This document shows positions 2,713 to 27,416 of a DNA stretch of 42,852 nt, one piece after another; the stretch's first letter is position 1, and each line of letters opens with the position of its first letter. Position numbers and translations under genes: made by a program. The DNA comes from Myxococcota bacterium (GTDB taxonomy: Bacteria > Myxococcota_C > UBA6777). The stretch is taken from positions 1-42,852 of the forward strand of contig JAKLKB010000054.1 of the NCBI GenBank assembly GCA_023150835.1. Direction: 5' to 3'. The notes under the pieces were generated by a model. The model worked only from the letters and a program-made list of their open reading frames with translations. It did no database searches and was not told the DNA's origin.

Positions 2713-4953
2713 TTATTTGGAGAGACAATAATCCATCTCGACGACGTCATCGCTTTGTTCGCGCATTCGGACGCGGAAGGGGGATTTTTGCGGGACGTTG
2801 AACTGACATTCGTGAAAGCCGGGATGGGAGAGTGAGGCTTTTTTGATTCCTTTTGGCAGACAAAATCCTTTTCCGTCTGTGGCCTTTGTGGCTTTTTGAT
2901 TTCCTGAAAGAAGGATATCGCTGAGCCGAACACGTGGAGAAACCACCATCCAGATCCTGTCTGGACAGGGAGATACTTTTTGAGGGGGTGGAGGGGGAGG
3001 CGTGGGGGTGGGAGAGTCGGGAGGTTGTTTGGGCAGGCGGCGCGAAGGCTTGCGGCGTGCGAGTTTTCGCCGAGGTTTGGGAGGGGTGGTGCTTGGTTCG
3101 GGCTGAAGTTCGGGAGAGGCTTCTTCGGGCAAGGCTTCGGGTAATCTCTCGGTGGGTGATGCGGATTTTTCTTCGGGAAGTCGAACTTCCATGTCGGGGA
3201 AAGGAACCCATCTTGCGGTTCCTGCGTCAGCGAGGGCTGCGGTGATCGGTTCGTCGGATCGAGGGGGAGGACTAGAAAAAAGGCCCATCGCATAAGCGAT
3301 GCCGATCGCGGCGATAAAAAACAGGGTGCTTCCAACGAAGAGGCCCAAGGATCTGTTTTTGGGGGAGAGAGACTCCACGTCGTCCGAACCTGCGAGCGTT
3401 GCACGCGAAGAAGGCGAACGCGTCGTGGGGGGGGACGGTGGTGTGGCGATCGCGATCGGGCGGCTACCTTGATCGAGCGTTGCAGATCGGGCGGATGGAG
3501 GTGTGTCTCCGCCGAGCGTTGTAGAGCGGGAGGATGAAGGTCTGTCTCCAAAGGTGACTTTGGCGGCGGAAGATGGCGGAGAAGAGAGCGATGCCGCAGG
3601 TGGCGAAGACAACAGAGAAGCGGACGGCGGCGGAGAAGAGAGGGCCGCAGTGTGTCGAGGGGAGGGGGCAACGGCGGCGCGTTGGGCAGAAGACGGTGCG
3701 TTGGGTGTGATCGCCATGGTTTCTTCGTCGATGGCGTCGAGGTCGGCTTCTGTGGAGGTGGGGAGGGGGCCAAATGAAGCGGGGATAGGCGGGTGCTGGC
3801 CGTGTTCGCTGGTATGGATCACGGGGGTTGTGCGCGGCGTATGGAGGTCCATTTGTCCCGTGTGATCGAGGGCGATGGCCTGTTTGGGTGGAGTTTGGCG
3901 TGTACTGTCTGAAGCCGCAGTCAGTCCTGCGATCCGTGCGGGTTTTTGAAGGGTGTATCCTTCGTGGTCGCTTTGGAAGGGTTCGAGTGCGGCCCAAAAG
4001 GCTTCGGCAGAAGGGAAGCGTTGTTGGGGATCGCGTGATAAGGCCCGTTGTACGGCGAGATCGAGTCCTTCGGGGATGCCTCGATCAGGGCGGATGGTGC
4101 GCAGGGGTGGGATCTTGTCGCTCATCATCCGCATGGAGATCAGTTGGAGCAGGGTAAGTTCTTTGATCTTTTGTGGATCGACGAGCGGGATCTGGCCTGT
4201 GAGCAGCTCGTGAAGGATGATGCCCATCGCGTAGATATCAGCGCGGTGATCGAGGTTTGCGGCGTTGGAGATCTGTTCGGGGGCGACATAAAAGGGGGTG
4301 CCAAGGAGGCCTTGTGTTTTGTGTCCACCTGTGGAAGTTGCGCTGTCAAGGGGCTTTGCGATACCAAAGTCGAGAACTTTGACAAAGTTCTCGCGGCGGC
4401 GATGGTGGATCAAGAAGATGTTGTCGGGCTTGAGATCGCGGTGGACGATCTGCTCTTCGTGGGCGGCTTGCATGGCGTCGCAGAGTTGGGCAAACACATC
4501 GAGACACCACGATATCGGCGGTAGTTGCGAGCGATCGGTCAAGCAGTCGGTCAGGGGGACGCCCTTCAAAAACTCCATGACATAGAAGTATCCGAGGCGG
4601 GGGATCTCACCGAAATCATCGAAGACACGGACGATATGGGGGTTGCGTTGAGACAGCGCCGATGTGGTTTGAACCTCGCGCAAAAAGCGGTCTTTCATGC
4701 CGAGTTGTTCCATGACTTCGGGCTTCATGATCTTGACGACGCGCTCGGCGTCTCGGTGCATGGTGAGGTGCATCGCACGGTACACCATGCCAAACCCACC
4801 TTCTCCAAGCACTTCGATCAACCGATACTTCCCTGCGATGGGCATCAGGGGAAATTGACAAAACAAGCAAAAGCCCAGATCGGGCTTCATCGCGAGGTAA
4901 GAAGAAAGGTCTTCTTTGCACCGAGGGCAGAGCGTCTTCTCTGTGGTGGTCAT
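2713..4953 (-). CDS. Ser/Thr protein kinase 1 (Hanks-type) with an N-terminal Zn-ribbon, a Pro-rich linker, one transmembrane helix and a disordered C-terminal tail
   Basis: Kinase motifs are present: GEGGFGMVY, VVKIMK, HRDLKPDNIFL, DFGIAK and GTPFYVAPE. The N-terminus carries CPRCKE...CLFCQ. The start was set at MTTTEK (4953) by analogy with the paralogue at the window start, and the upstream 48 codons of the track ORF overlap a repeated non-coding motif. There is a transmembrane helix LGLFVGSTLFFIAAIGIAYAMGLF. The C-terminal 120 aa are low-complexity and run into an AT-richer region, so the 3' end is uncertain. Confidence 0.8.
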   Translation of the reverse strand: MTTTEKTLCPRCKEDLSSYLAMKPDLGFCLFCQFPLMPIAGKYRLIEVLGEGGFGMVYRAMHLTMHRDAERVVKIMKPEVMEQLGMKDRFLREVQTTSALSQRNPHIVRVFDDFGEIPRLGYFYVMEFLKGVPLTDCLTDRSQLPPISWCLDVFAQLCDAMQAAHEEQIVHRDLKPDNIFLIHHRRRENFVKVLDFGIAKPLDSATSTGGHKTQGLLGTPFYVAPEQISNAANLDHRADIYAMGIILHELLTGQIPLVDPQKIKELTLLQLISMRMMSDKIPPLRTIRPDRGIPEGLDLAVQRALSRDPQQRFPSAEAFWAALEPFQSDHEGYTLQKPARIAGLTAASDSTRQTPPKQAIALDHTGQMDLHTPRTTPVIHTSEHGQHPPIPASFGPLPTSTEADLDAIDEETMAITPNAPSSAQRAAVAPSPRHTAALSSPPPSASLLSSPPAASLSSPPSSAAKVTFGDRPSSSRSTTLGGDTPPSARSATLDQGSRPIAIATPPSPPTTRSPSSRATLAGSDDVESLSPKNRSLGLFVGSTLFFIAAIGIAYAMGLFSSPPPRSDEPITAALADAGTARWVPFPDMEVRLPEEKSASPTERLPEALPEEASPELQPEPSTTPPKPRRKLARRKPSRRLPKQPPDSPTPTPPPPPPQKVSPCPDRIWMVVSPRVRLSDILLSGNQKATKATDGKGFCLPKGIKKASLSHPGFHECQFNVPQKSPFRVRMREQSDDVVEMDYCLSK

Positions 4954-5145
4954 CCAACATCTCCAAAACAGCGCTGTGATCGCTGCGTAGCGCGGGGCCA
5001 TCGGTATCCGCCCCCCAACACTTCAGCACATCGTTGGATTGCTGCGTAGCGCGGGGGCCATCGTGTTGTATTCGTTTCTTTACAGCCACGCTACGCGCTC
5101 TTGTGTGGCTCTGTCGTTGTTGAGCGTCAAAATCATCGAGCTGCA

Positions 5146-7032
5146 TCAAGTCCCCCACAGCCAGAGCGCAAGGCTTCCTAACAAAACGATTAGGCCGAGG
5201 CTCCACCACAAGAATGCACGCCCTTTGCTTTTGGGTGTAGGGGATGTCGCACGAAACTCCGATGATTCAAAGCTCTTGGGGGATCGAGGGGGGGCTTCTT
5301 GTTTGAGCAGGTTGCGCACAGGGAGCATCTCTTGGGTGGGGAGTTCTTGGAGGGGAGTAAAGGAGTCGAGTTCTTTGGTGGAAGGGGTTGGGCGTAAAAG
5401 AGCAGAGGGGCGATCGAGGGCTGGGAGTCCATCTTCGGAAGCGGCTTGGTGGAAGGGGGAAGGGTGAGGTTGTGGTGAGGCGACGAGAAATGCAGGGGGT
5501 TGGATCGCTTCAAGTACTCCGAAGGATTGGATCTCGATGTGTGTACGATCGTCGGAGGGGGGCGGCTTGGGTCGGTGGGTTGGGCGTTTCGATGCGGTGG
5601 GCTGGTAGGAGGGTTCTTCGGCGGGTTGGTAGGAGGGTTCTTCGGCGGTCGCTTCGGCAAAAAGAGGGAGGGAGACGGCTTTGATCTCGCTCCATGACGC
5701 CATCGCGCTTTCGTCGTCAGGAAGGGTATTTTCGAGAGAAGGTGTCGTGGGAGCCGATGGTTCGGGCGACTGGATCGCCCAAGAGGGGGCGATCTGTGTA
5801 GCGACTTCCCAGTCTTGGGCGGGCGGTGCAGCGGAGATTTGGGGGGAGGAAGGATGAGAGGGGGTGCCGTCGCGGGGGGCGTTTGGTGCGGGATGTTGGG
5901 TGTAGGGGGCGGCGTTCCAATCGTCTCCCGAAGAGGATTCGATCTGGGTTGAGGCGGCCCAATCGTCGGCAGAACGGGCATCCCACAGCGTGCGTGCAGA
6001 AGGAGCAGAAGACTCAAGGGCGACTTCTGTCCCCAAAAGGTAAGCGCGATCGTGCGGAGGCGAAAAGTGCTCTCCTTGGATGGCTTGGCCGGAGATCAAG
6101 TCTCCAAAAAACTCTGCAAGATCATCTTGTTCGAGAAATATCTGGTGGGCGCGTAAGAGTTGTTCGAGGGCGCGATAGGTTTGGCGTGCGTCGGCAAAGC
6201 GGTGTTCTCGGTCTTTGTGCAGCATGCGGGCAACGATCGCATCAAGGGCTTCGGGGATATCTGGGCGGTGGTTGCGCATCGGAGGTTGGTGGTGATCCAC
6301 GACGGCGAAGATCTGCGCGCCCATCCCGCCTTCTGTGGGTTCAAAGGGGCGGATATGGGTACAAAGTTCATACAAGATCGAACCAAGCGAGAAGATATCG
6401 GAGCGTCCATCCAGAGCTTGTCCTAAGATCTGTTCGGGCGACATATACGCGGCGGTGCCTTTGAGGACTTCCGAATTTTTCTGTGTGATGTTGTAGCTTT
6501 TGGCGATACCGAAGTCGATCAGTTTGAGAAAGCCTTCGCGGGCAAGGATCACGTTGGCGGGCTTGAGATCGCGGTGAACCAGACCAAGGGAACGACCATC
6601 CATGCCGCATTTTTGGTGGGCGTGTTGGAGGGCGCGGGCGATGCGCGCTCCGAAACGAACCGCAAGTGGCCAAGGCAAGGGGCGTTTCCAAGAAGCCCAA
6701 CAGCGATCCATCACCACGCGCAGATCGGCCCCGTCGATCCGCTCCATTGCGATGTAGACGATATCGTCTTCTTGGCCGACGTCGTAGATCTCGACGATAT
6801 CAGGGTGTTGAAGTTGGGCGGCGAGTCGGGCTTCTTGGAGCAGCACACGTTGGGCTTCGCTGGTAAAATCTCGATCGGAGCGCAATAATTTGAGGACAAC
6901 ACTTTTGCGAAATCCTGCGATGCCGGTCTGTTCGGCTTCCCATACGTCGGCTTGTCCCCCACGCGAGAGATGGCGCACCAGTTTGTATTTGCCTTGGACG
7001 ATGACGTGTCCGGGTTCGATCTTGCGTTCCAT
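5146..7032 (-). CDS. Ser/Thr protein kinase 2 (Hanks-type), Pro-rich, with a C-terminal transmembrane anchor
   Basis: Motifs present: GGQADVW, VVLKLL, HRDLKPANVIL, DFGIAK and MSPEQ. The C-terminus ends in a hydrophobic helix AFLWWSLGLIVLLGSLALWLWGT. An overlapping ORF 5190..6017 in another frame is Pro-rich noise. Confidence 0.85.
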   Translation of the reverse strand: MERKIEPGHVIVQGKYKLVRHLSRGGQADVWEAEQTGIAGFRKSVVLKLLRSDRDFTSEAQRVLLQEARLAAQLQHPDIVEIYDVGQEDDIVYIAMERIDGADLRVVMDRCWASWKRPLPWPLAVRFGARIARALQHAHQKCGMDGRSLGLVHRDLKPANVILAREGFLKLIDFGIAKSYNITQKNSEVLKGTAAYMSPEQILGQALDGRSDIFSLGSILYELCTHIRPFEPTEGGMGAQIFAVVDHHQPPMRNHRPDIPEALDAIVARMLHKDREHRFADARQTYRALEQLLRAHQIFLEQDDLAEFFGDLISGQAIQGEHFSPPHDRAYLLGTEVALESSAPSARTLWDARSADDWAASTQIESSSGDDWNAAPYTQHPAPNAPRDGTPSHPSSPQISAAPPAQDWEVATQIAPSWAIQSPEPSAPTTPSLENTLPDDESAMASWSEIKAVSLPLFAEATAEEPSYQPAEEPSYQPTASKRPTHRPKPPPSDDRTHIEIQSFGVLEAIQPPAFLVASPQPHPSPFHQAASEDGLPALDRPSALLRPTPSTKELDSFTPLQELPTQEMLPVRNLLKQEAPPRSPKSFESSEFRATSPTPKSKGRAFLWWSLGLIVLLGSLALWLWGT

Positions 7033-12341: not shown

Positions 12342-15020
12342 TCACTTGTCTTGGAGGCTTTGGAATTTGGATCGCATGGCGAAAGAGACGAGGATCTGGC
12401 CGACACGCTTGGTGGGACGGCCTTGGGCGAGGTATTTGTAGGCGACGTAGGCGACAGCGCGAGGATGGACGGTTTCGTAGTCGTTGGTGCTGTTTCGGCC
12501 TTTTTCGAGGACGTAACGCAGCCAAGCGTTGGTCACGCCGCTGACAGGGAAGTTGGAGCCGAGGACGCGTTTGAGTTCCGCTTCGATCTGTGCGCAGAGT
12601 TTGGGGTGGGCTTCGGTGTAGTGGCGTCCAGCGATGCCGCGAGGATCGCTCATAAAGATGCGGAGCGTTACTTTGCGCGGGAGGCGGATGCTTTCGAAGG
12701 GGAGTTGGGGTTTGTTGCCCTCTTCTTCTCGGTTTTGAGGGGGATCGGTCGCGACGACGGTTCGTCTTGTGGGTGGCGGTGGTGTGGGGCGATCGGTGGC
12801 CAAAGGTTCGAGGGAGGCGTTGATCTCTGCGGGTTTGTCGCTGCGCAGTTCAACGATGCGTGTGAGGGTCTTGTACCCGGGGGCTTTGAGTTGCAAGCGG
12901 TAACGTCCTACCGCAGCGATGTAGTTGTTGATGGGGGTATAGCCGATTAATTGGCCGTTGAGTTCGACGCGTGCGGAGGGTGTGGTACCGATGTAAAGTT
13001 TGCCTTGTTGAGGCTGTGCGGGATCCTGTGTTTCGGGCGTTTTGACAGGATCAGCGGAGGCTGCGCGTTTGGCGCGTCGCTTGGGTGGTTTGCGCCAACG
13101 CCGGCGTTTGCGGCGTGATGTGCGGACTTCGGGTTCCTCGTCGGGTCCTGTGGTTGGGGGGGGCGGGGTGGTACGGGGGAGATCACTTTGAAGGGGAGGG
13201 GGCGGCGGGCGGCGGGCAGCGGCCATCGCGGAGGTGATCTGCTGCTCCAATCGAAGGATGTTTGGGTGGTTGGGGGTTTGTTTTTTGAGGACTTGCAGGA
13301 AAGAGCGTGTTTCGAGCAGTTCGCCTTTTTTGATCATCTCTTCGGCGATCTTGAGTTGGGCCATCAGATCGAGGGTTTGGCGTTGGGTTTGTATCCAGTC
13401 GCCAAATTTTTGGTGTGCGCCGTCCATCTGCTCAAAGATGCGCAAACGCATCCGAGCTTCTTTGTGCTCGTTTTTGTCCATCAGTGCGGCGATTTGGAGC
13501 CTTTGTTTTTCGAGGGCACCGTCGTTGGGGCGGAGGAAAAACCACCATCCAGCCGCAGATCCTGAGAGAAGCAGCAGCAACATGAAACTCAGAACGAGCC
13601 AACGGGTGCCGCTGCTTCGAGGTGTCGAGCGGATACCGCTTTGTCCTTCAAGCGAAGGACTTGCGGGAACGCCTGCGGCCAAGGTCTCTTCGCCCGTGTC
13701 TTCGGGCAGTCCGGCTTGGATGTGGGCGAGATTCATTTGGGCCATCATGCCCGCGCCGCTTTGGTGGCCTTGGGATGGGGTATGTGTGGCTCGTCCCATC
13801 GCAGCCAACGAAGCCGAAGAAGGGGGGGTTCCTCCTTGGTAAGCGACCGGACCCATGCCTTGATAAGAAGCGGGTGTGGTTTGGCTGTAGGAGGGTGGAA
13901 AGTTGCCTGTGTGTTGGGTATTCCAGCCGGGTTGTGAGATCTGCGAGTTGTATCCGGGATGTTGGAAGTTGGGGATCATATCGGGCGAAGCAAATTCACC
14001 TGCAAACCGAACGAGATCAGCGGGGGTGAGGGGAGAGAAGATGCCCGTTTGATCGGTTCGTTGTTCGTCGGGGAAAAATTCTTGGGTGAGTTCGGCAAGC
14101 TGTGCTGTTCCGAAGTATTCGCCACTTTCGTGCATGAATTTTTCGAGATCGCCGCGCAGTTCGTCTGCGGAGTTGTAGCGCAAGTCGCGCTCTTTGGCGA
14201 GCGCTTTCATCACGATGGTTTCGAGAGCTTCGGGATAGCTGCGATCGAACTTGGACGGGGCCATCACTTGGGCTTCGCTGACGGCTTTAATCACTTCGAT
14301 CTCGCTGCGGCGACCAAACAGGCCGACGTTGGTGGTCATCTCATAAAGGATGATCCCGAGCGAGAAGATATCGGAGCGGTTGTCGAGGTCTTTGTTGGCG
14401 ATTTGTTCGGGGGACATATAGCGGTACTTGCCTTTGATGGTCCCTGCGCTGGTACGGTGTTGCTGGGTGGTGGCTTTGGCAACGCCGAAGTCGACGATCT
14501 TGGCGACTCCGTTGTAGGAGACCAAGATATTGGTGGGGCTGACGTCGCGGTGGATGATTTGGAGGGGGTATCCGTCGTCATCGACGGCAGTGTGGGCATA
14601 ATGCAAGCCTGCGGAGGCTTGGGCGAGGATCGCGGCAGAGACGGCATACGGGGAGAACTTGGTGGGGCGTTGTTTGTAAAGGCGTTTTCGGAATTCGCGG
14701 AGGCTTTGCCCACGAATAAACTCCATCGCGATGAAGTACACGCCGACTTGTTCGCCGATCTCCAAGATGCGGACGATGTTGGGATGTTCGAGGCTTGCGG
14801 CGATCCGCGCTTCGTCCAAGAACATCTGAACGAATTGTTCTTCTTTGGCCAAGTGAGGCAGGATGCACTTTAAGACGATCGTCTTGCGAAAACCCCCGAT
14901 ACCCGGTTGTTTTGCCAAGAACAATTCGGCCATCCCCCCCGTCGCGAGTCGAGCAAATACGCGGTATTTGCCAAACTGAACGCCAATCTCGTCTCGGACT
15001 TGCTGTTTCGCGTTATCCAT
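12342..15020 (-). CDS. Ser/Thr protein kinase 3 (Hanks-type): kinase, transmembrane helix, helical region, PEGA domain, C-terminal domain
   Basis: Motifs present: GGMAELF, IVLKCIL, HRDVSPTNILV, DFGVAK and MSPEQ. Transmembrane helix WLVLSFMLLLLLSGSAAGWWFF. PEGA domain LYIGTTPSARVELNGQLIGYTPINNYIAAVGRYRLQLKAPGYKTL. Confidence 0.85.
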   Translation of the reverse strand: MDNAKQQVRDEIGVQFGKYRVFARLATGGMAELFLAKQPGIGGFRKTIVLKCILPHLAKEEQFVQMFLDEARIAASLEHPNIVRILEIGEQVGVYFIAMEFIRGQSLREFRKRLYKQRPTKFSPYAVSAAILAQASAGLHYAHTAVDDDGYPLQIIHRDVSPTNILVSYNGVAKIVDFGVAKATTQQHRTSAGTIKGKYRYMSPEQIANKDLDNRSDIFSLGIILYEMTTNVGLFGRRSEIEVIKAVSEAQVMAPSKFDRSYPEALETIVMKALAKERDLRYNSADELRGDLEKFMHESGEYFGTAQLAELTQEFFPDEQRTDQTGIFSPLTPADLVRFAGEFASPDMIPNFQHPGYNSQISQPGWNTQHTGNFPPSYSQTTPASYQGMGPVAYQGGTPPSSASLAAMGRATHTPSQGHQSGAGMMAQMNLAHIQAGLPEDTGEETLAAGVPASPSLEGQSGIRSTPRSSGTRWLVLSFMLLLLLSGSAAGWWFFLRPNDGALEKQRLQIAALMDKNEHKEARMRLRIFEQMDGAHQKFGDWIQTQRQTLDLMAQLKIAEEMIKKGELLETRSFLQVLKKQTPNHPNILRLEQQITSAMAAARRPPPPPLQSDLPRTTPPPPTTGPDEEPEVRTSRRKRRRWRKPPKRRAKRAASADPVKTPETQDPAQPQQGKLYIGTTPSARVELNGQLIGYTPINNYIAAVGRYRLQLKAPGYKTLTRIVELRSDKPAEINASLEPLATDRPTPPPPTRRTVVATDPPQNREEEGNKPQLPFESIRLPRKVTLRIFMSDPRGIAGRHYTEAHPKLCAQIEAELKRVLGSNFPVSGVTNAWLRYVLEKGRNSTNDYETVHPRAVAYVAYKYLAQGRPTKRVGQILVSFAMRSKFQSLQDK

Positions 15021-21421: not shown

Positions 21422-21596
21422 GTGTCGTGCGGTGGCTAAAAAAGTCCGTGTTCGCGGAAAGCCTTGGTGGTGGGGCTTTTTGGCTTTTCGGGAGAGATGG
21501 AAAGGAGGAGCGGTGTCGATCATCAAGATACGCAAACGATGGATGGAGCGATGGCAGCGATGGCAGCGATGGCAGCGGGTGTGTGGACGGTGGGGT

Positions 21597-22925
21597 ATGT
21601 GGTTGTGGCTTGTGCCTGTGGCGCATCTGTTGATCGGCGCAACAAGTCGTCCTTCCGCTCAATCTACCGAGCAAAAAGCGTGGGTGATCTCGGTGGTTGG
21701 GAGTATCAATGCGGGAACTGCTGATTATATCGACGAGGCGATCCGCAAAGCCCCGTCCCAAGGGGCTGTGGTGGTGGTGCTAGAGATGGACACCCCGGGA
21801 GGGTTTTTGCAGGCAACGCGTTCGATCGTCAAATCGATCTTGAATGCGGAGATCCCTGTGTTGGTTTTTGTCACACCTTCGGGGGCGCGGGCGGGAAGTG
21901 CGGGGGTGTTTATTACCCTTGCAGGACATCTCGCGGCGATGAGTCCGGGGACGAATATCGGGGCCGCGCATCCTGTGACGGGGGGTGGAAAAGATCCCGA
22001 AGCTACGGGCGGAAAGCATCTTGCGAAGAAGATCGAAAATGACACTGTGGCGTTTGTGTCGGCCATCGCAAAGCAACGCCATCGCAACGTGGCATGGGCG
22101 CGCAAAGCCGTTTTGGAGAGCGATTCGGTGACGTCGGATGAAGCGCTGTCTTTGAAGGTGATCGATCTGATCGCCTCGAATACGCAAGACCTTTTGCAAA
22201 AGGTGGATGGGCGGACGGTGCGTGTCGGACAGCGCGATCTTCGTTTGCGTACGCGGACACTCCCGATTGAACGCAAGCAGATGACGTTCAAACAAGGAGT
22301 CGTGAACTTTTTTGCGGACCCGAATATCGCGTACTTTTTGTTGACGTTTGGGATGTTGGGGATCGTGATGGAGATCTATCACCCGGGGGCGATCTTTCCC
22401 GGGGTGTTTGGGGCGATCTGTTTGTTTTTGTCATTTGTTGCGATGCAGGTCTTGCCGATCAATTACGGTGGATTGGCGTTGATGGGGCTTGGGTTGTTGT
22501 TGTTGGTGGCGGAACTCTTTACGCCGACGTTTGGGGTGTTGTTTTTGGGGGGTCTGATCTCGTTGGCGGTGGGATCGATCTTTTTGATTGATTCGCCTGA
22601 TCCGAATCTGCGGATATCGTTGATGATGATCGTGCCGACGCTTTTGGTGATGGCGCTGTTGCTTGGAGGTGTGTTGGTGGCTGTGTTGCGAACTTATCGC
22701 AAGCCTGTTTTTTCGGGAGTGGGGTCTTTGGTGGGTCGTGAAGGGCTCGCGTATGCGGATATTCGGGGGGAAGGCAAAGTTTCTATCGACGGGGAACTTT
22801 GGAATGCTCGTACAAAGCAGGAGATCGCCAAGGGAGCGCGCGTGCGGGTGGTTGCGATGGACGGGCTGTTGTTGCATATTGAGCGAGTGTCCGAGAAATC
22901 CGAAAAAGACAGGAGTGGCGTATGA
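21597..22925 (+). CDS. NfeD family membrane-bound serine protease (ClpP-class) with a C-terminal OB-fold domain
   Basis: Start set at the ATG at 21597 ([15 protein letters not shown] is a signal/transmembrane segment). The alternative ATG at 21543 (MERWQRWQRWQRV) lies within a 9-bp x3 repeat, gatggcagc. NfeD blocks: [60 protein letters not shown]. Several transmembrane helices follow, and then a C-terminal beta domain ([30 protein letters not shown]). The stop overlaps the stomatin start (ATGA). Confidence 0.75.
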
Positions 22926-23716
22926 ATCCAGCCGTATCGATGGCATTGGGCCTTTTGGCCGCATTTTTGTTGATGGTTGTTCCGATGATGTTCCGTATCT
23001 TGCGGGAGTACGAGCGGGGGGTGGTGTTTCGTTTGGGCCGATTGTCGGCGGTCAAAGGCCCGGGACTGATCTTGTTGATTCCGATGGTGGACACGATGGA
23101 GCGTGTGGATCTGCGTACGGTGACAGCGGATGTTCCGACGCAAGACATCATTACACGCGACAACGTATCCGTGAAGGTCAACGCGGTGGTGTATTATCGG
23201 GTGATGTCGCCTGACAAGGCGATTACAACGGTGGAAGACTACCGCTACGCAACAAGCCAGATGGCGCAAACCAAATTACGCGATGTGTTGGGCCAATTGG
23301 AACTCGATGATCTGTTGTCAGAGCGGGATAAGATCAACGAACGCCTGCAAGAGATCCTCGACAAACAGACGGATCCTTGGGGAATCAAGGTATCGACGGT
23401 CGAACTCAAGCACGTCGACTTGCCCACAGAGATGGTGCGTGCGATGGCGCGTCAAGCCGAAGCCGAGCGCGAACGACGGGCCAAAGTGATCAACGCTGAA
23501 GGCGAATTTCAAGCCTCCGCAAGGCTCGGTGAAGCGGCAGATATCATGGAAAAACACCCGATGTCGCTTCAGTTGCGTTATCTGCAAACCATCTTGGAGA
23601 TCGCTTCGACGCAAAATGCCATCAATACGATCATCCCTTTGCCCATCGAGTTGTTCAAGCCCTTCATGTCGAAGGAATCGACATCGGCGACTTCTGTAGA
23701 AGAGAAGAAATCTTAG
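22922..23716 (+). CDS. SPFH/Band-7 stomatin-like protein
   Basis: N-terminal transmembrane helix, then [14 protein letters not shown]...[12 protein letters not shown]...[22 protein letters not shown]: a canonical stomatin/prohibitin core. Followed by a coiled-coil and an acidic tail. It is translationally coupled to the NfeD gene. Confidence 0.85.
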
Positions 23717-23846: not shown

Positions 23847-25619
23847 ATGTCCCGTTCGCGGATCGTCTGGATGCTCTTTTTCGCTTTGTTGTTGGGCGCA
23901 GGAGCCGCAGTCTTTTTCTTCCGACAAGGCTTGGATGCTTACCAAGCCAACGTTGCGCAGCCTTCTTTGCAACAGCAAGCACGCAGCGCGCAACAAGCCA
24001 TCAAACTCTTGGGATTGCAACAGATCTCTCTGGCCTCGGCCCACCTTAAAGATGCGCGTCTTTCCTCGATATTTGGGGCGCAAGGAGAAGAACGTAAAAA
24101 GCAAGCCGCTGCTTTTCTCGCCTCCGCCATCGGCGCGGCCTCTCCAAAAACAGCCGAGAAGCTGGGAACCTCCTTTGCTGCGCTGTCGGATGAAAAAGCC
24201 GCTGTCCTCGCGCTCTCCGCAGGCGCACCTGAGGGAGTCGTCTTGGAAAATGTCGAAGCCTCGAAGGATGGGAACTCTTCGCAGGGTGTGATCGTCTCCA
24301 ATGGCAAAGCGTATCTTTTGGTGCATGTTCCCGTCTTTGGCGTCCCAAGCACCGCATCTGCCCCAAAAGCGGGCGATGGCGACAAAAAAGAGGGCGATGG
24401 CGATAAAAAAGCCGGAGATGGCGATAAAAAAGAAGAAGACGGTGGCAAAAAAGAGGGCGACGGCGACAAGGAAGAAGATCCCCCCACGCCCCGCAAAAAA
24501 AGCAGCAACGCCAACAAACAAGCCTGTCCCGCTGGGAAGATCTGGGCTTGTTTGAAGGTCTGTGCAAAGCGCGACAGCAAAAAGAAGTGCCTCGAACAAA
24601 AAGAGAAATGTGCTTGCTATGCTCCGAAAAAGAAACCCAAAAGCTCTTGGCGGATGCCCTCGTTGCAACAACGCTTTGCGCAAGCTGCGGAAGATGACAA
24701 GCCCACTCCTGCTCCTGCGACCACGCCCCAACCTCCTGTCGCTTTGAGGCTTTTGGGGATCTTTACACAAGCCTTTGCGATCGATGATCGCTTTGCTTAT
24801 GTCCTCAAGTCTCCAATCTTCGGAACAGCGGTCGATCTGGTGTTCTTCTCGCCCAAAGGCCAGATCCTTGGGAGTTCGCTCAAAGAAAAAGCGTCCATGC
24901 AGACCTTGCTTGCTTCGGCGACTGGCAAGTTTTTGTTAGAGATGAAAAAAGAGGGCGGTGCGGTAGAGCTTGGAAGCAAGCACTACGATGCGCTGTCTTT
25001 GAAGATGGACGGCGGAAAGATCGGGCTGGTTGTGCTACAGACTCGTTCTGGGTGGGAAGGCTTTTTGGAGCAGAACTTGATCTTGATGGGGTCGGTGGTT
25101 GTAGGGTTTGTGTTGTTGCTGTTGTTGCTGTTGCTGCCGGGAGCAGGCAAAACAGACAAGCAATTGTTTGATCTGGAAGAACAACTTTTGGATATCTACC
25201 GCACAGGTAACTTGCAAGTGGCTTTTGTCGAAAGCGCCCCGGGTGCTGTGGGCTCGCTTGCAGCAACGCTCAACCGCATCTTTTTCCAGCTACACAACCA
25301 AGTCGTCGAGATCCAAGAAGCTTCCGTTCAAGATATCCCCCGTCAGCACGAAACCACTCTTTCGCTGTCTTCACCCGAAGTGCAGATGGCGCTTCATGAA
25401 CCCGAAGTCCATTACCAACAAGTCTTTCAGCGTTATGCCAAAGCGAAAGAACAAACAGGAGAAGACACTTCTTTGCTCGATCAAGAGCGGTTCTTGGACA
25501 AGCTGCGTCAAAATGCGGCCACCTTCCGCAAACAATACGATTGCCTTGGCGTTGCGTTTGATGTGGCCGTCAAAGACAACAAAGTGATCTTGAAGCCCCA
25601 ACTGATCCCCCGAGATTGA
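23847..25619 (+). CDS. Hypothetical sensor-like membrane protein: transmembrane helix, periplasmic domain, (KKEGDGD)x5 acidic/basic repeat, Cys cluster, transmembrane helix, HAMP-like segment, C-terminal domain
   Basis: ATG at 23847 with GGAG upstream. N-terminal transmembrane helix WMLFFALLLGAGAAVFFF. Low-complexity repeat KAGDGDKKEGDGDKKAGDGDKKEEDGGKKEGDGDKEED. Cys cluster CPAGKIWACLKVCAKRDSKKKCLEQKEKCAC. Second transmembrane helix LILMGSVVVGFVLLLLLLLLPGAG. A HAMP-like stretch (ESAPGAVGSLAATLNRIFFQL) follows. No recognisable output domain. Confidence 0.5.
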   Translation: MSRSRIVWMLFFALLLGAGAAVFFFRQGLDAYQANVAQPSLQQQARSAQQAIKLLGLQQISLASAHLKDARLSSIFGAQGEERKKQAAAFLASAIGAASPKTAEKLGTSFAALSDEKAAVLALSAGAPEGVVLENVEASKDGNSSQGVIVSNGKAYLLVHVPVFGVPSTASAPKAGDGDKKEGDGDKKAGDGDKKEEDGGKKEGDGDKEEDPPTPRKKSSNANKQACPAGKIWACLKVCAKRDSKKKCLEQKEKCACYAPKKKPKSSWRMPSLQQRFAQAAEDDKPTPAPATTPQPPVALRLLGIFTQAFAIDDRFAYVLKSPIFGTAVDLVFFSPKGQILGSSLKEKASMQTLLASATGKFLLEMKKEGGAVELGSKHYDALSLKMDGGKIGLVVLQTRSGWEGFLEQNLILMGSVVVGFVLLLLLLLLPGAGKTDKQLFDLEEQLLDIYRTGNLQVAFVESAPGAVGSLAATLNRIFFQLHNQVVEIQEASVQDIPRQHETTLSLSSPEVQMALHEPEVHYQQVFQRYAKAKEQTGEDTSLLDQERFLDKLRQNAATFRKQYDCLGVAFDVAVKDNKVILKPQLIPRD

Positions 25620-25695
25620 TATCTGGTCGTTTCGATATCGCTCGAATCCACCGATATGACGGGCTTTTGGATCTCTCTTCGTGTGGGGATCTTGT

Positions 25696-26388
25696 ATGCT
25701 ACCTCAAAACCCTCCGCCCTTTTCTTCTTCTACACACCTCAACCTCTCTCATTGGGTTCCCAAAACAGGAGCCGAAGGCCCCGGTCAACGCTTTGCTTTG
25801 TGGGTACAAGGCTGCGCCATCCGTTGCGCAGGGTGCTGTAACCCCGAGATGTTCGGCTTTTTTCCAAAGCAACTGCTCACCGTCGACGACGTGATGGGCA
25901 TGATCCGTTCGGCACAGTCGCAGTATTTGATCGAAGGCATCTCTTGTCTTGGAGGAGAACCCTTTGCACAAGCCGAACATCTCGGCCTTTTGGCAGAAGC
26001 TGTGCAAGCGTGTGGTCTTTCGGTGATGATCTTTTCGGGCTACACGCTCGAAGAGATCCGCGCACGTCATGATCCCCATGCGGAGCGCCTGTTGGCGCAC
26101 ACAGATATCTTGGTCGACGGGCCTTATCGAGAAGATCTACACACCGAAGAACGCCGATGGATCGGCTCAACCAATCAGCGCCTCCACTTTTTAAGTGATC
26201 GCTACGACCCCGAAGACCCTTGTTGGAAGCAAAAGAACAGCGTCGAAGTGTTCTTTGATGGCAAAGAATTGCGGATTACTGGATTTCCAAAAAAAGAGTG
26301 GCGCGAGGAAGTTGTGCGATGGCGTCGCCAAATCGAACAGGCCCGAACGACGGGACATCCCGAAAAAAACAAATCGCACACATCTTAG
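25696..26388 (+). CDS. NrdG-like anaerobic ribonucleotide-reductase-activating-protein homologue (radical SAM / single 4Fe-4S cluster domain)
   Basis: AEGPGQRFALWVQGCAIRCAGCCNPE matches NrdG N(G)PG...SGCxxxCxGCxN. GISCLGGEPF matches ISLSGGDPL. ILVDGPY matches VLVDGKF. The ATG at 25696 was preferred over the GTG at 25681. No nrdD or glycyl-radical enzyme gene is adjacent. Confidence 0.7.
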   Translation: MLPQNPPPFSSSTHLNLSHWVPKTGAEGPGQRFALWVQGCAIRCAGCCNPEMFGFFPKQLLTVDDVMGMIRSAQSQYLIEGISCLGGEPFAQAEHLGLLAEAVQACGLSVMIFSGYTLEEIRARHDPHAERLLAHTDILVDGPYREDLHTEERRWIGSTNQRLHFLSDRYDPEDPCWKQKNSVEVFFDGKELRITGFPKKEWREEVVRWRRQIEQARTTGHPEKNKSHTS

Positions 26389-26406
26389 AGAGGAGTGCTT
26401 TGTTGG

Positions 26407-27162
26407 TTAGTGCTTGCCGGTGTGTTCGATACGTACGGGGACTTCTTGCATGGTGGGGGAGCCAAACAGAGAGAGCATCAAGAGGGGGCTTGCTTCGCCG
26501 AGAAGTCCCCGCCCGATCGATTGTAGCACGCGACTGATCAACAAAGACAATGCGAACAGCCCCAAAAAGACGGAGAGTCCGATCCAAAGATAGGTGCGTT
26601 GGGTCAGAGCAAAGAAGACGGCAGGGAACAAAGACAGCAGCCCCAACCCAACAAATACACGCGATATCTGCACTCCGATACTTCGTTTCGTCGGATGGAA
26701 GGCCATGTTGGTGATAAAGTAGGTGATGATAAACAACGCCCATGCGAAAAACAAAGGTAGCAACACACCCACAGAGAGCAATTGTCCTGCGACGGCAACT
26801 TGCTGCAATCGTGGGAATTGAAAAAGAAAGTAGCTTGTTCCATAGAAAAATAAGGCCGCGATCAGGAGGTAGCGCAACGGAGGCTCCAACAACAATCGCT
26901 GCAATAAGGAAGTGAAGGAGATCGAGCGGAGTTGGTGGAGTGCTTCGTTGCGCTGGGCTTCGTCGCCGCAGGACAAGGCTCGTCGAAAGGAGACACGCGC
27001 TGCGTCGAGGTTGTTGTCAAGGACGTGGCAATTTCCCATCCACAGATGGGCCGAGGCTTCGTCTTGATCTCGTTCGATCAGCCCAAGGAAGATCTTTGTT
27101 GCCCCGTCAAGATCCCCTTTTTTAAAGAGTGTGATCCCGTCTTGTATTGTTTTTTTGGCCAT
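26407..27162 (-). CDS. Hypothetical membrane protein: N-terminal TPR-like cytoplasmic segment plus about 4 transmembrane helices
   Basis: The track ORF was trimmed to the ATG at 27162 (MAKKTIQDGITLFKKGDLDGATKIFLGLIERD...). Four hydrophobic helices follow. It is divergent from the MVP-like gene. Confidence 0.45.
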   Translation of the reverse strand: MAKKTIQDGITLFKKGDLDGATKIFLGLIERDQDEASAHLWMGNCHVLDNNLDAARVSFRRALSCGDEAQRNEALHQLRSISFTSLLQRLLLEPPLRYLLIAALFFYGTSYFLFQFPRLQQVAVAGQLLSVGVLLPLFFAWALFIITYFITNMAFHPTKRSIGVQISRVFVGLGLLSLFPAVFFALTQRTYLWIGLSVFLGLFALSLLISRVLQSIGRGLLGEASPLLMLSLFGSPTMQEVPVRIEHTGKH

Positions 27163-27416
27163 GCAACCAAAACCCTTTCGTGCCATGTTCCATTGATCTG
27201 GCGCTTGTGGTACGTTGCGCATCATAACACTTCCACGCCAAAAGATCACTCTCAAGAAAGGACTTTGCCGCCAACGCTTTCTCTCTCGCCGAAGACGCGC
27301 AAAGCCCGAAGGTTCAAAGGAGACGTCACACAACATACAAACAAGCCAAAGCCTCCGAACATCCGAATCCATCACCAACGTCATCTCGATCCGTACGACG
27401 CTTGGAGCAAAACAGT

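Follow-up and report, generated by a model that had tools for sequence, protein, structure and literature searches.

Glycyl-radical activases are the textbook partners of oxygen-sensitive anaerobic enzymes, and Planctomycetota and Myxococcota are mostly aerobic. A gene coding for an activase-type radical S-adenosylmethionine (SAM) protein, referred to below as rSAM, is present on a Myxococcota contig of 42,852 nucleotides (42.8 kb; the whole of this stretch is hereafter the window) with no glycyl-radical enzyme (GRE) beside it. The question raised by this locus is what such a protein acts on.

The rSAM gene and its product

The open reading frame occupies 25681(GTG)/25696(ATG)..26388 on the + strand. 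The homologues in alignment A1, which comprises 37 rSAM sequences and is the basis for all motif invariance given below, begin at ATG 25696, and a GGGGA is located about 8 nt 5′ of this codon, so the coordinates 25696–26388 and the length of 230 aa are considered correct. The features of the gene are:

25696–26388, + strand, radical-SAM (rSAM) gene, 230-aa NrdG/PflA-type product (Pfam/NCBIfam matches, AF2 model, fold match to 3CB8)
25777–25791, + strand, G28-P-G-x-R32 loop (E27, G28, P29, G30 and R32 invariant in A1; aligned with DGPGIR of PflA-AE)
25813–25845, + strand, [4Fe-4S] cluster motif C40-x3-C44-x2-C47-C48-N49-P50 (invariant in the 37 homologues; within the Fer4_12 and Radical_SAM matches)
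25951–25962, + strand, GGEP SAM-binding block, residues 86–89 (invariant in A1; aligned with GGE of PflA-AE)
26194–26385, + strand, C-terminal extension, residues ~167–230, predicted β-hairpin and helix (past the point where the NrdG models stop)

By structure the protein belongs to the GRE-activase class (NrdG/PflA type) of [4Fe-4S]/S-adenosylmethionine radical enzymes, in agreement with the original prediction. It matches Pfam Fer4_12 with E = 2.4e-31 (residues 27–164) and Radical_SAM with E = 1.1e-7, and the motifs E27-G-P-G-x-R32, G39-C40-x3-C44-x-G-C47-C48-N49-P50, G86-G-E-P89 and V140-D-G142 are all invariant or nearly so across the 37 homologues. The top Foldseek matches of the AF2 model (pLDDT 87.7) are 3CB8, 8FO0 and 3C8F, with E-values from 5e-8 to 2e-7 and QueE coming next after PflA-AE, and an hmmsearch against the PDB detected PflA alone (E = 6e-15). 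Judging from the motifs and the model, the catalytic apparatus is predicted to be intact. The GPGxR loop is, by alignment, the putative counterpart of the DGxGxR peptide-contact loop of GRE activases; we take the latter to contact the substrate peptide, as in the 3CB8 structure, and presumably G28–R32 has the same role in rSAM. Within the C-terminal extension Y170, W177, N181, G196 and P198 are invariant in A1, W202 is clade-specific, and the AF2 model contains strands at residues 183–187 and 192–196 followed by a helix at residues 200–219.

Comparison with NrdG, PflA and QueE

The radical-SAM core of NrdG (TIGR02491, NF008335) is minimal, as in rSAM, with about 150 aa, and the two are alike in the GPGxR loop, the GCxxxCxGCxN cluster motif, the GGEP and VDG blocks and RxxGSxNQ near the core end. 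However, NrdG has a length of about 150–170 aa and ends soon after GSxNQ, whereas rSAM possesses about 64 extra conserved C-terminal residues: the 154-position NrdG profiles stop at rSAM residues 164–166, with 64 more residues after them. HMM classification, proposed by the original prediction as a way of separating NrdG-type proteins from QueE, does place NrdG ahead, but not above its threshold, as rSAM reaches 100.5 bits with the best NCBIfam match, TIGR02491 (NrdG), for which the cutoff is 126.1. The remaining models give 54.8 against 199 (NF008335), 48 against 151.7 (TIGR02826) and 38.2 against 131.15 bits (TIGR02495), and in NCBIfam the protein is far under the cutoffs for NrdG2, NrdG3, PflA, YjjW and QueE. 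The scores under the cutoffs, together with the invariant residues past the end of the NrdG profile, argue that rSAM is not the activase of the anaerobic ribonucleotide reductase and is a member of a separate family.

By fold, rSAM comes closest to PflA (PDB 3C8F/3CB8; E = 5e-8, rmsd 2.6 Å over 130 columns), the peptide-binding DGPGIR loop of which aligns with EGPGQR of rSAM. PflA differs in having 245 aa and a fuller barrel, with a TM-score to rSAM of 0.45–0.48; rSAM scores 53.7 bits with the PflA model TIGR02493, the cutoff being 231.75, and there is no PFL-type substrate nearby. QueE shares its COG-level group of small radical-SAM enzymes with rSAM and ranks second among the fold matches, but rSAM reaches just 23 bits with TIGR04349 (cutoff 300) and shares 13–14% identity with QueE in the fold alignment, and the rSAM contig contains no que (queuosine) genes.

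Search for a glycyl-radical enzyme or radical site

The original prediction had found no glycyl-radical partner in the neighbourhood of rSAM, and this holds for the entire 42.8-kb contig, in which no GRE was detected when all the ORFs of at least 500 aa and most of those of 250–500 aa were scanned against Pfam and NCBIfam. The scanned ORFs encode Ser/Thr kinases, a TonB receptor, DUF58/VWA, a TrpRS/TyrRS-class synthetase, UDG, NfeD, SPFH, UvrB, F1Fo ATPase and similar proteins. In 14 sets of related loci the genes with a Pfam annotation include no GRE or nrdD; unlike NrdG, rSAM was not found beside nrdD in the loci examined and has conserved partner genes of its own. A regular-expression scan for RVxG[FWY] yielded chance matches only, and no conserved neighbour of rSAM carries such a motif.

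Several glycines were considered as possible radical sites, none of them convincing. The Gly of the C-terminal GY.DE.Y of fvmX6, a gene accompanying rSAM in related loci (see below), is replaced with Ser or Ala in several members. G568 of M590, the membrane protein encoded upstream of rSAM, has no RVxG context and gives way to S, A, T or D across the wider domain family, being invariant only within the rSAM-linked subfamily; a low-confidence AF2 model places it at a helix–strand junction, whereas the glycine of GREs is at a hairpin tip. As for the tail of the window rSAM itself, R-I-T-G-F, its Arg is not conserved in the homologues.

That rSAM is an ordinary NrdG or another GRE activase, the nrdD or GRE partner of which is unlinked and encoded elsewhere in the genome, would agree with NrdG being the best NCBIfam match, with the presence of all GRE-activase motifs and with the inspection having covered one 42.8-kb contig, but it is made very improbable by the scores, which stay under the curated cutoffs of all NrdG, PflA and GRE-activase models, the conserved 64-aa extension past the NrdG profile, the conserved non-GRE neighbours (53/66 loci in the family and 10/10 members with upstream sequence in the window's own clade), and the fact that a GRE was seen in none of the inspected loci. 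Many of the hosts, moreover, such as Cystobacter, Pyxidicoccus, Gemmataceae and Pirellulaceae, are aerobes.

The rSAM family and FtsH ternary systems

The rSAM family is large and tightly conserved, with 50–92% identity across Planctomycetota and Myxococcota. The gene fvmX6 is located directly downstream of rSAM in 53 of the 66 genome loci with enough sequence, and, of the 44 loci where the downstream sequence is 6 kb or longer, 25 have fvmX5 and 20 an FtsH-like gene. The array is headed by rSAM, followed by fvmX6, fvmX5, the gene for the double-AAA FtsH-like protein, the fvmX3-analog and fvmX7, and also includes MoxR(GPPGTAKS). In the NJ tree the window rSAM falls within a monophyletic clade which is sister to this fvmX6-linked clade, and the genes of the fvmX6 array are not found near the rSAMs of the window clade.

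The fvmX6-linked array is what Kaur, Burroughs, Iyer and Aravind (eLife 2020) described as the "FtsH ternary" conflict system; they mentioned a "distinctive radical SAM" as the effector of simple FtsH ternary (FtsH-vWA-MoxR) systems and proposed a peptide substrate for it. From gene context we infer that their radical SAM belongs to the same family as rSAM; the supplement of that paper contains no radical-SAM accession. Searching the literature for NrdG-like orphans, MXAN_5187 and fvmX returned nothing beyond Kaur et al. 2020, and PADLOC-DB 2.0 gave no defence match for rSAM or six of its neighbours.

The proposal of a peptide substrate (Kaur et al. 2020) bears on another explanation, namely that the substrate of rSAM is, like those of QueE and viperin, a small molecule or nucleotide, from which it would make a signalling or toxic metabolite, with M590 as a regulator or anchor. 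The position of QueE as the next-best fold match after PflA-AE, the weak QueE profile match and the classing of the radical SAM as a conflict-system effector (Kaur et al. 2020) would all fit a small-molecule substrate. It is nevertheless unlikely, considering that the QueE match amounts to 23 bits where the cutoff is 300, that the GPGxR loop and GCxxxCxGCxN are typical of GRE activases and not of QueE, and that the substrate proposed for the conflict-system enzyme is a peptide.

The rSAMs of FtsH ternary systems and the window rSAM are 48–55% identical along more than 80% of their length and have the C-terminal extension and its invariant residues in common. Unlike the former, the window rSAM is encoded on a contig without an fvmX, FtsH-like, vWA or MoxR gene. 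Comparison of the window neighbours with fvmX6, fvmX5, the fvmX3-analog and fvmX7 gave hhalign probabilities of at most 1.2%, and M590, the TPR-membrane protein, the MVP-like protein and the 337-aa and 166-aa proteins were on that account rejected as diverged forms of these four; the vWA and AAA_5 proteins encoded in relatives had no tblastn match in the window. As M590 lacks homology to fvmX6, fvmX5, the fvmX3-analog and fvmX7, no common substrate domain joins the two clades.

M590, the upstream partner of rSAM

The genes and the spacer flanking rSAM in the window are:

23847–25619, + strand, M590, 590-aa upstream partner gene (alignment A2; adjacency in the clade)
25404–25616, + strand, MXAN_5187-type C-terminal domain of M590, residues 520–590 (NCBIfam NF041621, E = 6e-17; conservation in A2)
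25620–25695, no strand, 76-bp M590–rSAM spacer (GGGGA before the ATG; no terminator-like site on the + strand)
26407–27384, − strand, TPR/membrane protein, neighbour of rSAM
27402–30302, MVP-like protein (MVP_shoulder 7.6e-18)

The neighbours are thus the sensor-like membrane protein, the TPR/membrane protein and the MVP homologue which the original prediction had listed, the latter two being limited to the immediate relatives of the window. It had listed the sensor-like protein among the neighbours, and comparison of related genomes shows a closer tie: each of the ten clade members having upstream sequence (the window, WIN, and L013, L003, L005, L014, L015, L093, L095, L097 and L102) carries M590 directly upstream of rSAM and in the same orientation. 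Across these ten, rSAM identity goes down to 48–55% and that of M590 to about 24–32%, and the surrounding genes vary. Given the adjacency in 10/10 members, M590 is not an incidental neighbour, and the partner of rSAM is probably this membrane protein. The description of rSAM as a stand-alone orphan stands in that there is no GRE partner on the contig but falls short in that the protein belongs to a distinct conserved family with fixed partners, either fvmX6/fvmX5/FtsH-like or M590. One sub-branch of the clade, consisting of L011/L016 and L103 (Planctomycetota), has no M590.

According to A2, M590 has two TM segments and, besides a cytoplasmic tail, an extracytoplasmic region in which six Cys are invariant. 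A HAMP-like stretch was noticed as well, judged by eye only, and a low-complexity repeat swamps the full-length homology search (5 matches). The C-terminal domain is the most conserved part; it carries D565-C566-x-G568-V, ends with KDNKVILKPQLIP and is modelled by AF2 as helix-helix-hairpin with pLDDT 65–77. The M590 subfamily comprises about 9 clusters at 50% identity, sharply separate from about 420 other proteins with the MXAN_5187_C domain, and two relatives from the wider family without an rSAM neighbour differ at positions invariant in the subfamily. A metagenome scan with M590 gave 3 loci. The small size of the subfamily matches that of the rSAM clade. The spacer between the two genes is 8–213 bp long in the relatives, and its length of 76 bp in the window with no terminator-like site makes co-transcription of M590 and rSAM plausible.

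The pairing could also be synteny inherited within one Myxococcota lineage, and one explanation of this kind is that rSAM still serves an FtsH ternary system (fvmX6/fvmX5/FtsH-like/vWA/MoxR) encoded elsewhere, with the M590 adjacency having no function. An unchanged substrate encoded elsewhere is compatible with the finding that the two rSAM clades are told apart by no more than four positions, which, along with the 48–55% identity to the fvmX6-linked enzymes and the commonness of the array in Myxococcota (L067, L085, L081 and L090 among the loci), lends this explanation some weight. We still find it doubtful in view of the monophyletic and separate position of the window clade, the persistence of the M590–rSAM adjacency while all other flanks change, and the almost constant association of sister-clade rSAMs with fvmX6.

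Proposed mechanism

The best reading, held here with middling confidence, is that rSAM is an enzyme of the GRE-activase type acting on a non-GRE protein partner, most likely the M590 tail, the window clade having swapped its fvmX partners for M590. The fixed pairing with the sensor-like M590 and the lack of an adjacent reductase suggest that the target is probably a protein other than the reductase. The C40/C44/C47 cluster would reductively cleave SAM bound at GGEP, and a protein substrate gripped by the GPGxR loop would lose a hydrogen atom to the resulting 5′-deoxyadenosyl radical, while the C-terminal extension may dock the partner. In the window lineage, in which the fvmX/FtsH partners would have been exchanged for a co-transcribed M590, this partner would most likely be the cytoplasmic C-terminal domain of M590. 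Such a partner would site the reaction at the membrane, where it may be gated by what M590 senses. While the analysis itself establishes the family, motifs and fold of rSAM, the conserved pairing of the genes and the lack of a GRE on the contig, we infer the protein nature of the substrate, its identity with M590 and the chemical outcome, which may be a stable radical, a cross-link, an epimerisation or a cleavage. More specifically, and with low confidence, rSAM may place a protein-centred radical on a non-GRE partner or, through radical chemistry, cause a cross-link, epimerisation or O2-triggered backbone cleavage in it, the partner being the M590 tail here and fvmX6 or fvmX5 in the sister clade.

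The rSAM family combines the full activase machinery and a wide distribution in Planctomycetota and Myxococcota with no GRE alongside in the loci examined, and is associated with conflict-system proteins in one clade and with a membrane sensor in the other. If the pairing has a function, the M590 tail and the 230-aa enzyme form a two-gene system in which an activase without a GRE can be studied, as well as an experimentally simpler relative of the putative "radical SAM effector" of FtsH ternary systems. If the protein-radical reading is true, rSAM and its partner would represent a new class of membrane signalling or conflict switch, driven by a radical-SAM enzyme in bacteria that are largely aerobic and of multicellular type; if the pairing is mere synteny, rSAM is one more uncharacterised radical-SAM protein.

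Other flanking genes

The flanks change within the clade, which has NfeD/SPFH genes or lacks them upstream and vWA-MoxR, MVP or NHL-repeat genes downstream. A vWA and AAA_5 pair convergent with rSAM occurs in L005, L014, L015, L093 and L095; it was rejected as a tie to the ternary systems, being confined to one sub-lineage and absent from the window, and its AAA_5 protein has only generic AAA+ likeness to the FtsH-system MoxR (hhalign probability 12%). The pair is kept as a lead only. The upstream UDG was rejected as a member of the known rSAM–UdgX repair pair, since it is a family-4 UDG and under the UdgX cutoff. Upstream of M590 the window contains:

21432–23716, + strand, NfeD (21432–22925) and SPFH/Band_7 (22922–23716) pair (Pfam)

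This pair is facultative, as it is found in most members of the clade and is absent in L097, where the UDG gene directly precedes M590.

Sequence features and family assignment of rSAM

The longest frame in the ORF listing for the radical-SAM protein studied here (rSAM) has 235 aa and starts at GTG 25681. ATG 25696, five codons further on, is the start used by the homologues (alignment A1) and has GGGGA about 8 nt upstream, so the ORF is real and the coordinates of the original prediction, 25696-26388 (+), stand, for a product of 230 aa. Pfam Fer4_12 matches residues 27-164 (E=2.4e-31) and Radical_SAM also matches the protein (E=1.1e-7), and the predicted GPG loop, cluster motif, GGEP and VDG blocks are all present, each being invariant or nearly so in 37 homologues:

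E27-GPG-x-R32, GPG loop
G39-C40-x3-C44-x-G-C47-C48-N49-P50, cluster motif
G86-GEP89, GGEP block
V140-DG142, VDG block

The catalytic core is that of an intact radical-SAM enzyme of the glycyl-radical enzyme (GRE) activase type. The label NrdG-like holds insofar as TIGR02491 (NrdG) is the top NCBIfam model and all motifs are found, but the score of 100.5 bits lies below the equivalog cutoff of 126.1, so the protein is not NrdG proper. It also falls far under the NCBIfam cutoffs for the E. coli type of NrdG, NrdG2, NrdG3, PflA, YjjW, other GRE activases and QueE. The NrdG profiles (154 positions) are exhausted by residue ~166, and conservation among the homologues persists past it (Y170, W177, N181, G196 and P198 are invariant), forming a conserved family-specific C-terminal module. 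In the confident AlphaFold2 model built from the homologue alignment (pLDDT 87.7) this extension is predicted to be a β-hairpin (183-187, 192-196) followed by a helix (200-219).

The E. coli PflA activase is the sole solved structure detectable by sequence (E=6e-15) and also the best fold match of the model (3CB8, E=5e-8, rmsd 2.6 Å, 130 columns), with QueE coming next. Its DGPGIR loop, which grips the substrate peptide in the 3CB8 complex, aligns with EGPGQR of the rSAM family, and this analogy supports a protein or peptide as the probable substrate. A reaction on a small molecule, like those of QueE or viperin, is unlikely, given the GRE-activase loop and signature in rSAM.

Genes surrounding rSAM

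Every contig ORF of at least 500 aa and most of those of 250-500 aa were scanned against Pfam or NCBIfam. They include three Ser/Thr kinases, a TonB-dependent receptor, DUF58/VWA, DUF924, a class-I W/Y tRNA synthetase, a family-4 UDG, NfeD, SPFH and FHA proteins, UvrB and the F1Fo ATP synthase operon. No GRE was found among the scanned ORFs, which extends its predicted absence from the vicinity to the entire contig, and rSAM has no GRE partner in cis. It would act in the manner of a GRE activase yet stands outside NrdG in score and length, and probably in its partner too. The neighbours originally named, a sensor-like membrane protein, a TPR/membrane protein and an MVP homologue, were all confirmed:

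23847-25619, +, 590-aa protein with two transmembrane (TM) segments (M590)
26407-27384, - (opposite to rSAM), TPR/membrane protein
27402-30302, +, MVP-like protein, 966 aa (MVP_shoulder 7.6e-18, Vault_3)

The MVP-like protein is homologous to the major vault protein of eukaryotes, with MVP_shoulder at residues 614-724 and Vault_3, below the gathering cutoff, at 555-608; it has no match in NCBIfam or PADLOC, and its gene is restricted to the window and the relative with 92% identity. At 21432-23716 (+), just 5' of M590, a gene for a long-form NfeD (an N-terminal ClpP-like, a membrane and a C-terminal OB domain) and an SPFH/Band_7 gene share 4 bp in a classic NfeD-stomatin operon. Since the MVP shoulder domain is SPFH-like, the locus possesses two SPFH-type scaffolds.

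Relatives of rSAM and the FtsH ternary systems

The homology search covered 5.8 billion proteins and gave thousands of matches, the best 120 of which are all 190-260 aa long, with 51-92% identity and 80-100% query coverage, and belong to Planctomycetota (Gemmataceae, Pirellulaceae, Lignipirellula cremea) and Myxococcota. On a 254-kb Planctomycetota scaffold the homologue is followed by PF20004 fvmX6, PF20003 fvmX5, an AAA+/Peptidase_M41 FtsH-like protein, PF20002 fvmX3-analog and PF20005 fvmX7, and the array starts in the same way at further loci. For 80 loci from one-genome-per-species contigs, ORFs were called and clustered by all-against-all BLASTP, and representatives were annotated. Of the 66 loci that offer 1.5 kb or more of downstream sequence, 53 carry fvmX6 directly 3' of the rSAM gene and in the same orientation, a count that takes in a divergent Myxococcota form still matching PF20004 at 1.7e-11; where at least 6 kb is available (44 loci), fvmX5 is present in 25 and the FtsH-like gene in 20. 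Wherever the array sequence extends far enough, fvmX7 is followed by a MoxR ATPase whose P-loop, GPPGTAKS, is unusual. The fvmX6/fvmX5/FtsH-like array is what Kaur, Burroughs, Iyer and Aravind (eLife 2020; PMC7159879) called the "FtsH ternary system"; the GXXXTAKS P-loop was also described by them. We infer that the radical SAM of these systems is the rSAM family; no accession list tying the two was found, nor any later paper on the family. Judged by homology, rSAM is a member of this FtsH-ternary radical-SAM family, which is known only from that one computational study.

Among the 71 loci with upstream sequence, 23 (L007 6884-7942, L038 8900-9943 and 21 others) have an RtcA-type RNA 3'-terminal phosphate cyclase gene (PF01137, 3.5e-75) immediately 5' of the rSAM gene and on its strand. 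They come mostly from Gemmataceae and Fimbriiglobus, and in them the cyclase gene heads the fvmX6/fvmX5/FtsH array, a hint that the array's role is connected with RNA ends.

A conserved pair with a membrane protein

Despite fitting the family by homology, the window's rSAM fails the contextual definition of the ternary system. The contig has no fvmX, FtsH-like, vWA or MoxR gene of the ternary type, profile-profile comparison of M590, the TPR, MVP-like, 337-aa and 166-aa proteins with fvmX6, X5, X3a (the fvmX3-analog) and X7 gave probabilities of at most 1.2%, and tblastn with the relatives' vWA and AAA_5 proteins found nothing in the window. In a neighbour-joining tree of 84 family members it belongs to a monophyletic group apart from the large fvmX6-linked one. 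Outside a Planctomycetota sub-branch without M590 (L011/L016, L103), every member of the group with upstream sequence has an M590 homologue immediately upstream on the same strand.

Table. Loci with M590 upstream and identity of their rSAM to that of the window
Window, 100%
L013 (= L002), L003, 92%
L014, L093, ~60-67%
L015, ~58-66%
L005, 55%
L095, 52%
L102, 49%
L097, 48%

The two genes are 8-213 bp apart, and the 76-bp spacer of the window contains no terminator-like site on the + strand. M590 identity drops to ~24-32% with the architecture kept. NfeD-SPFH lies 5' of M590 in most members and is missing in L097, where UDG directly precedes M590; downstream, the TPR and MVP genes are confined to the window and its 92% relative, one sub-lineage has a zincin-vWA protein and a ~1,000-aa AAA_5 ATPase, and the remaining M590 loci have NHL or MopE-like repeat proteins. 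As the pair is kept while all other flanks vary, M590 and rSAM form the conserved core, a probably co-transcribed pair, and neighbourhood comparison singles out M590 as the constant partner in this clade. As far as could be found, pairing of a radical SAM of this family with an MXAN_5187-type membrane protein is undescribed.

It is conceivable, if rather improbable, that rSAM serves an FtsH ternary array encoded elsewhere in the genome; the M590 pairing, which has outlasted every other flank, speaks against it. An ordinary NrdG with an unlinked nrdD is very improbable, as the scores stay below threshold, the extension is conserved and the partners are fixed and are not GREs. No more than four positions, W202 in the tail among them, consistently tell the two rSAM clades apart, which suggests that they share the same chemistry and differ in docking partner.

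In the sub-lineage with the zincin-vWA protein (L005 10708-15582 (-), also L014, L015, L093, L095), two genes are convergent with the rSAM gene. They encode a 615-aa protein with an HEVGH zincin motif and a CobT_C/vWA domain and a ~1,010-aa AAA_5 ATPase with the P-loop GETSTSKT and a C-terminal ribosomal L7/L12_C-like domain; both are related to the ternary-system MoxR in a generic way only (hhalign probability 12%). In the M590-less sub-branch the rSAM gene lies near aldehyde dehydrogenase genes (L103 3863-7210 (-); L011 11001-12443 (+)) and, in L103, also near bacterial microcompartment shell genes (BMC, CsoS1D_N); no GRE was present among the annotated genes around rSAM in either locus.

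The M590 protein

An identical protein is recorded as L6R29_13025. Two TM segments were read from the sequence:

~7-25, N-terminal TM segment
~436-457, second TM segment

Between them, a long and predicted extracytoplasmic stretch holds a GDGDKK repeat of low complexity as well as six cysteines (C227-C257), all invariant. In the window (24350-24620, M590 ~170-258) the repeat is followed by a very basic segment, the cysteines being C227, C235, C239, C248, C255 and C257. A HAMP-like stretch after the second TM is seen by eye only, with no Pfam support, and the protein ends in a cytoplasmic tail, as read from the sequence. NCBIfam NF041621 "MXAN_5187 C-terminal domain" matches the final 70 residues (E=6e-17), the best conserved part: DC[LR]G568V.FD..VKDNKVILKPQLIP

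An exhaustive HMMER search with residues 500-590 gave 429 cluster representatives, and the scores drop sharply below ninth place: eight representatives have E<=5.5e-19 and 53-85% identity, the ninth is intermediate (9e-11) and all others have E>=6e-10. The top group is the M590 subfamily, three members of which are the L102, L097 and L095 proteins by matching lengths. In the wider MXAN_5187-domain family C566, V569, F571 and V573 are conserved but position 568 varies (S, A, T, G or D); two metagenome members have RCNSV at this site and no radical-SAM neighbour. The five-sequence AlphaFold2 model is poor overall (pLDDT 45.8) and moderate in the tail (65-77), where it has two helices plus a hairpin and puts G568 at the point where helix gives way to strand.

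Proposed mechanism

SAM would be cleaved at the rSAM cluster (C40/C44/C47), yielding a 5'-deoxyadenosyl radical that would take hydrogen from a protein substrate gripped by the GPGxR loop, with the C-terminal module docking the partner, which in the window's clade would probably be the cytoplasmic tail of M590. No classical glycyl-radical loop is present in fvmX6, M590 or the tail of rSAM itself. Many hosts of the family are presumably aerobes and glycyl radicals are oxygen-labile, so a stable glycyl radical seems less likely, and we speculate that a cross-link, epimerisation or a deliberately destructive modification is the likelier product. The M590-rSAM pair would be a compact two-gene handle on activase function without a GRE.

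Other features of the window

Three large genes for Ser/Thr kinases (762 aa, 628 aa and, with a PEGA domain, 892 aa) lie at 2713-7032 and 12342-15020 (-), and FHA-domain proteins are encoded at 32406-33275, a complement typical of signalling-rich Myxococcota genomes. On the + strand, GC skew is strongly positive over the first ~23 kb, reaching +0.28, and strongly negative between ~35 and 42 kb, reaching -0.31, with the switch around 24000-30000. The skew does not follow gene orientation, so a switch related to replication and with terminus-like polarity may lie within the contig.
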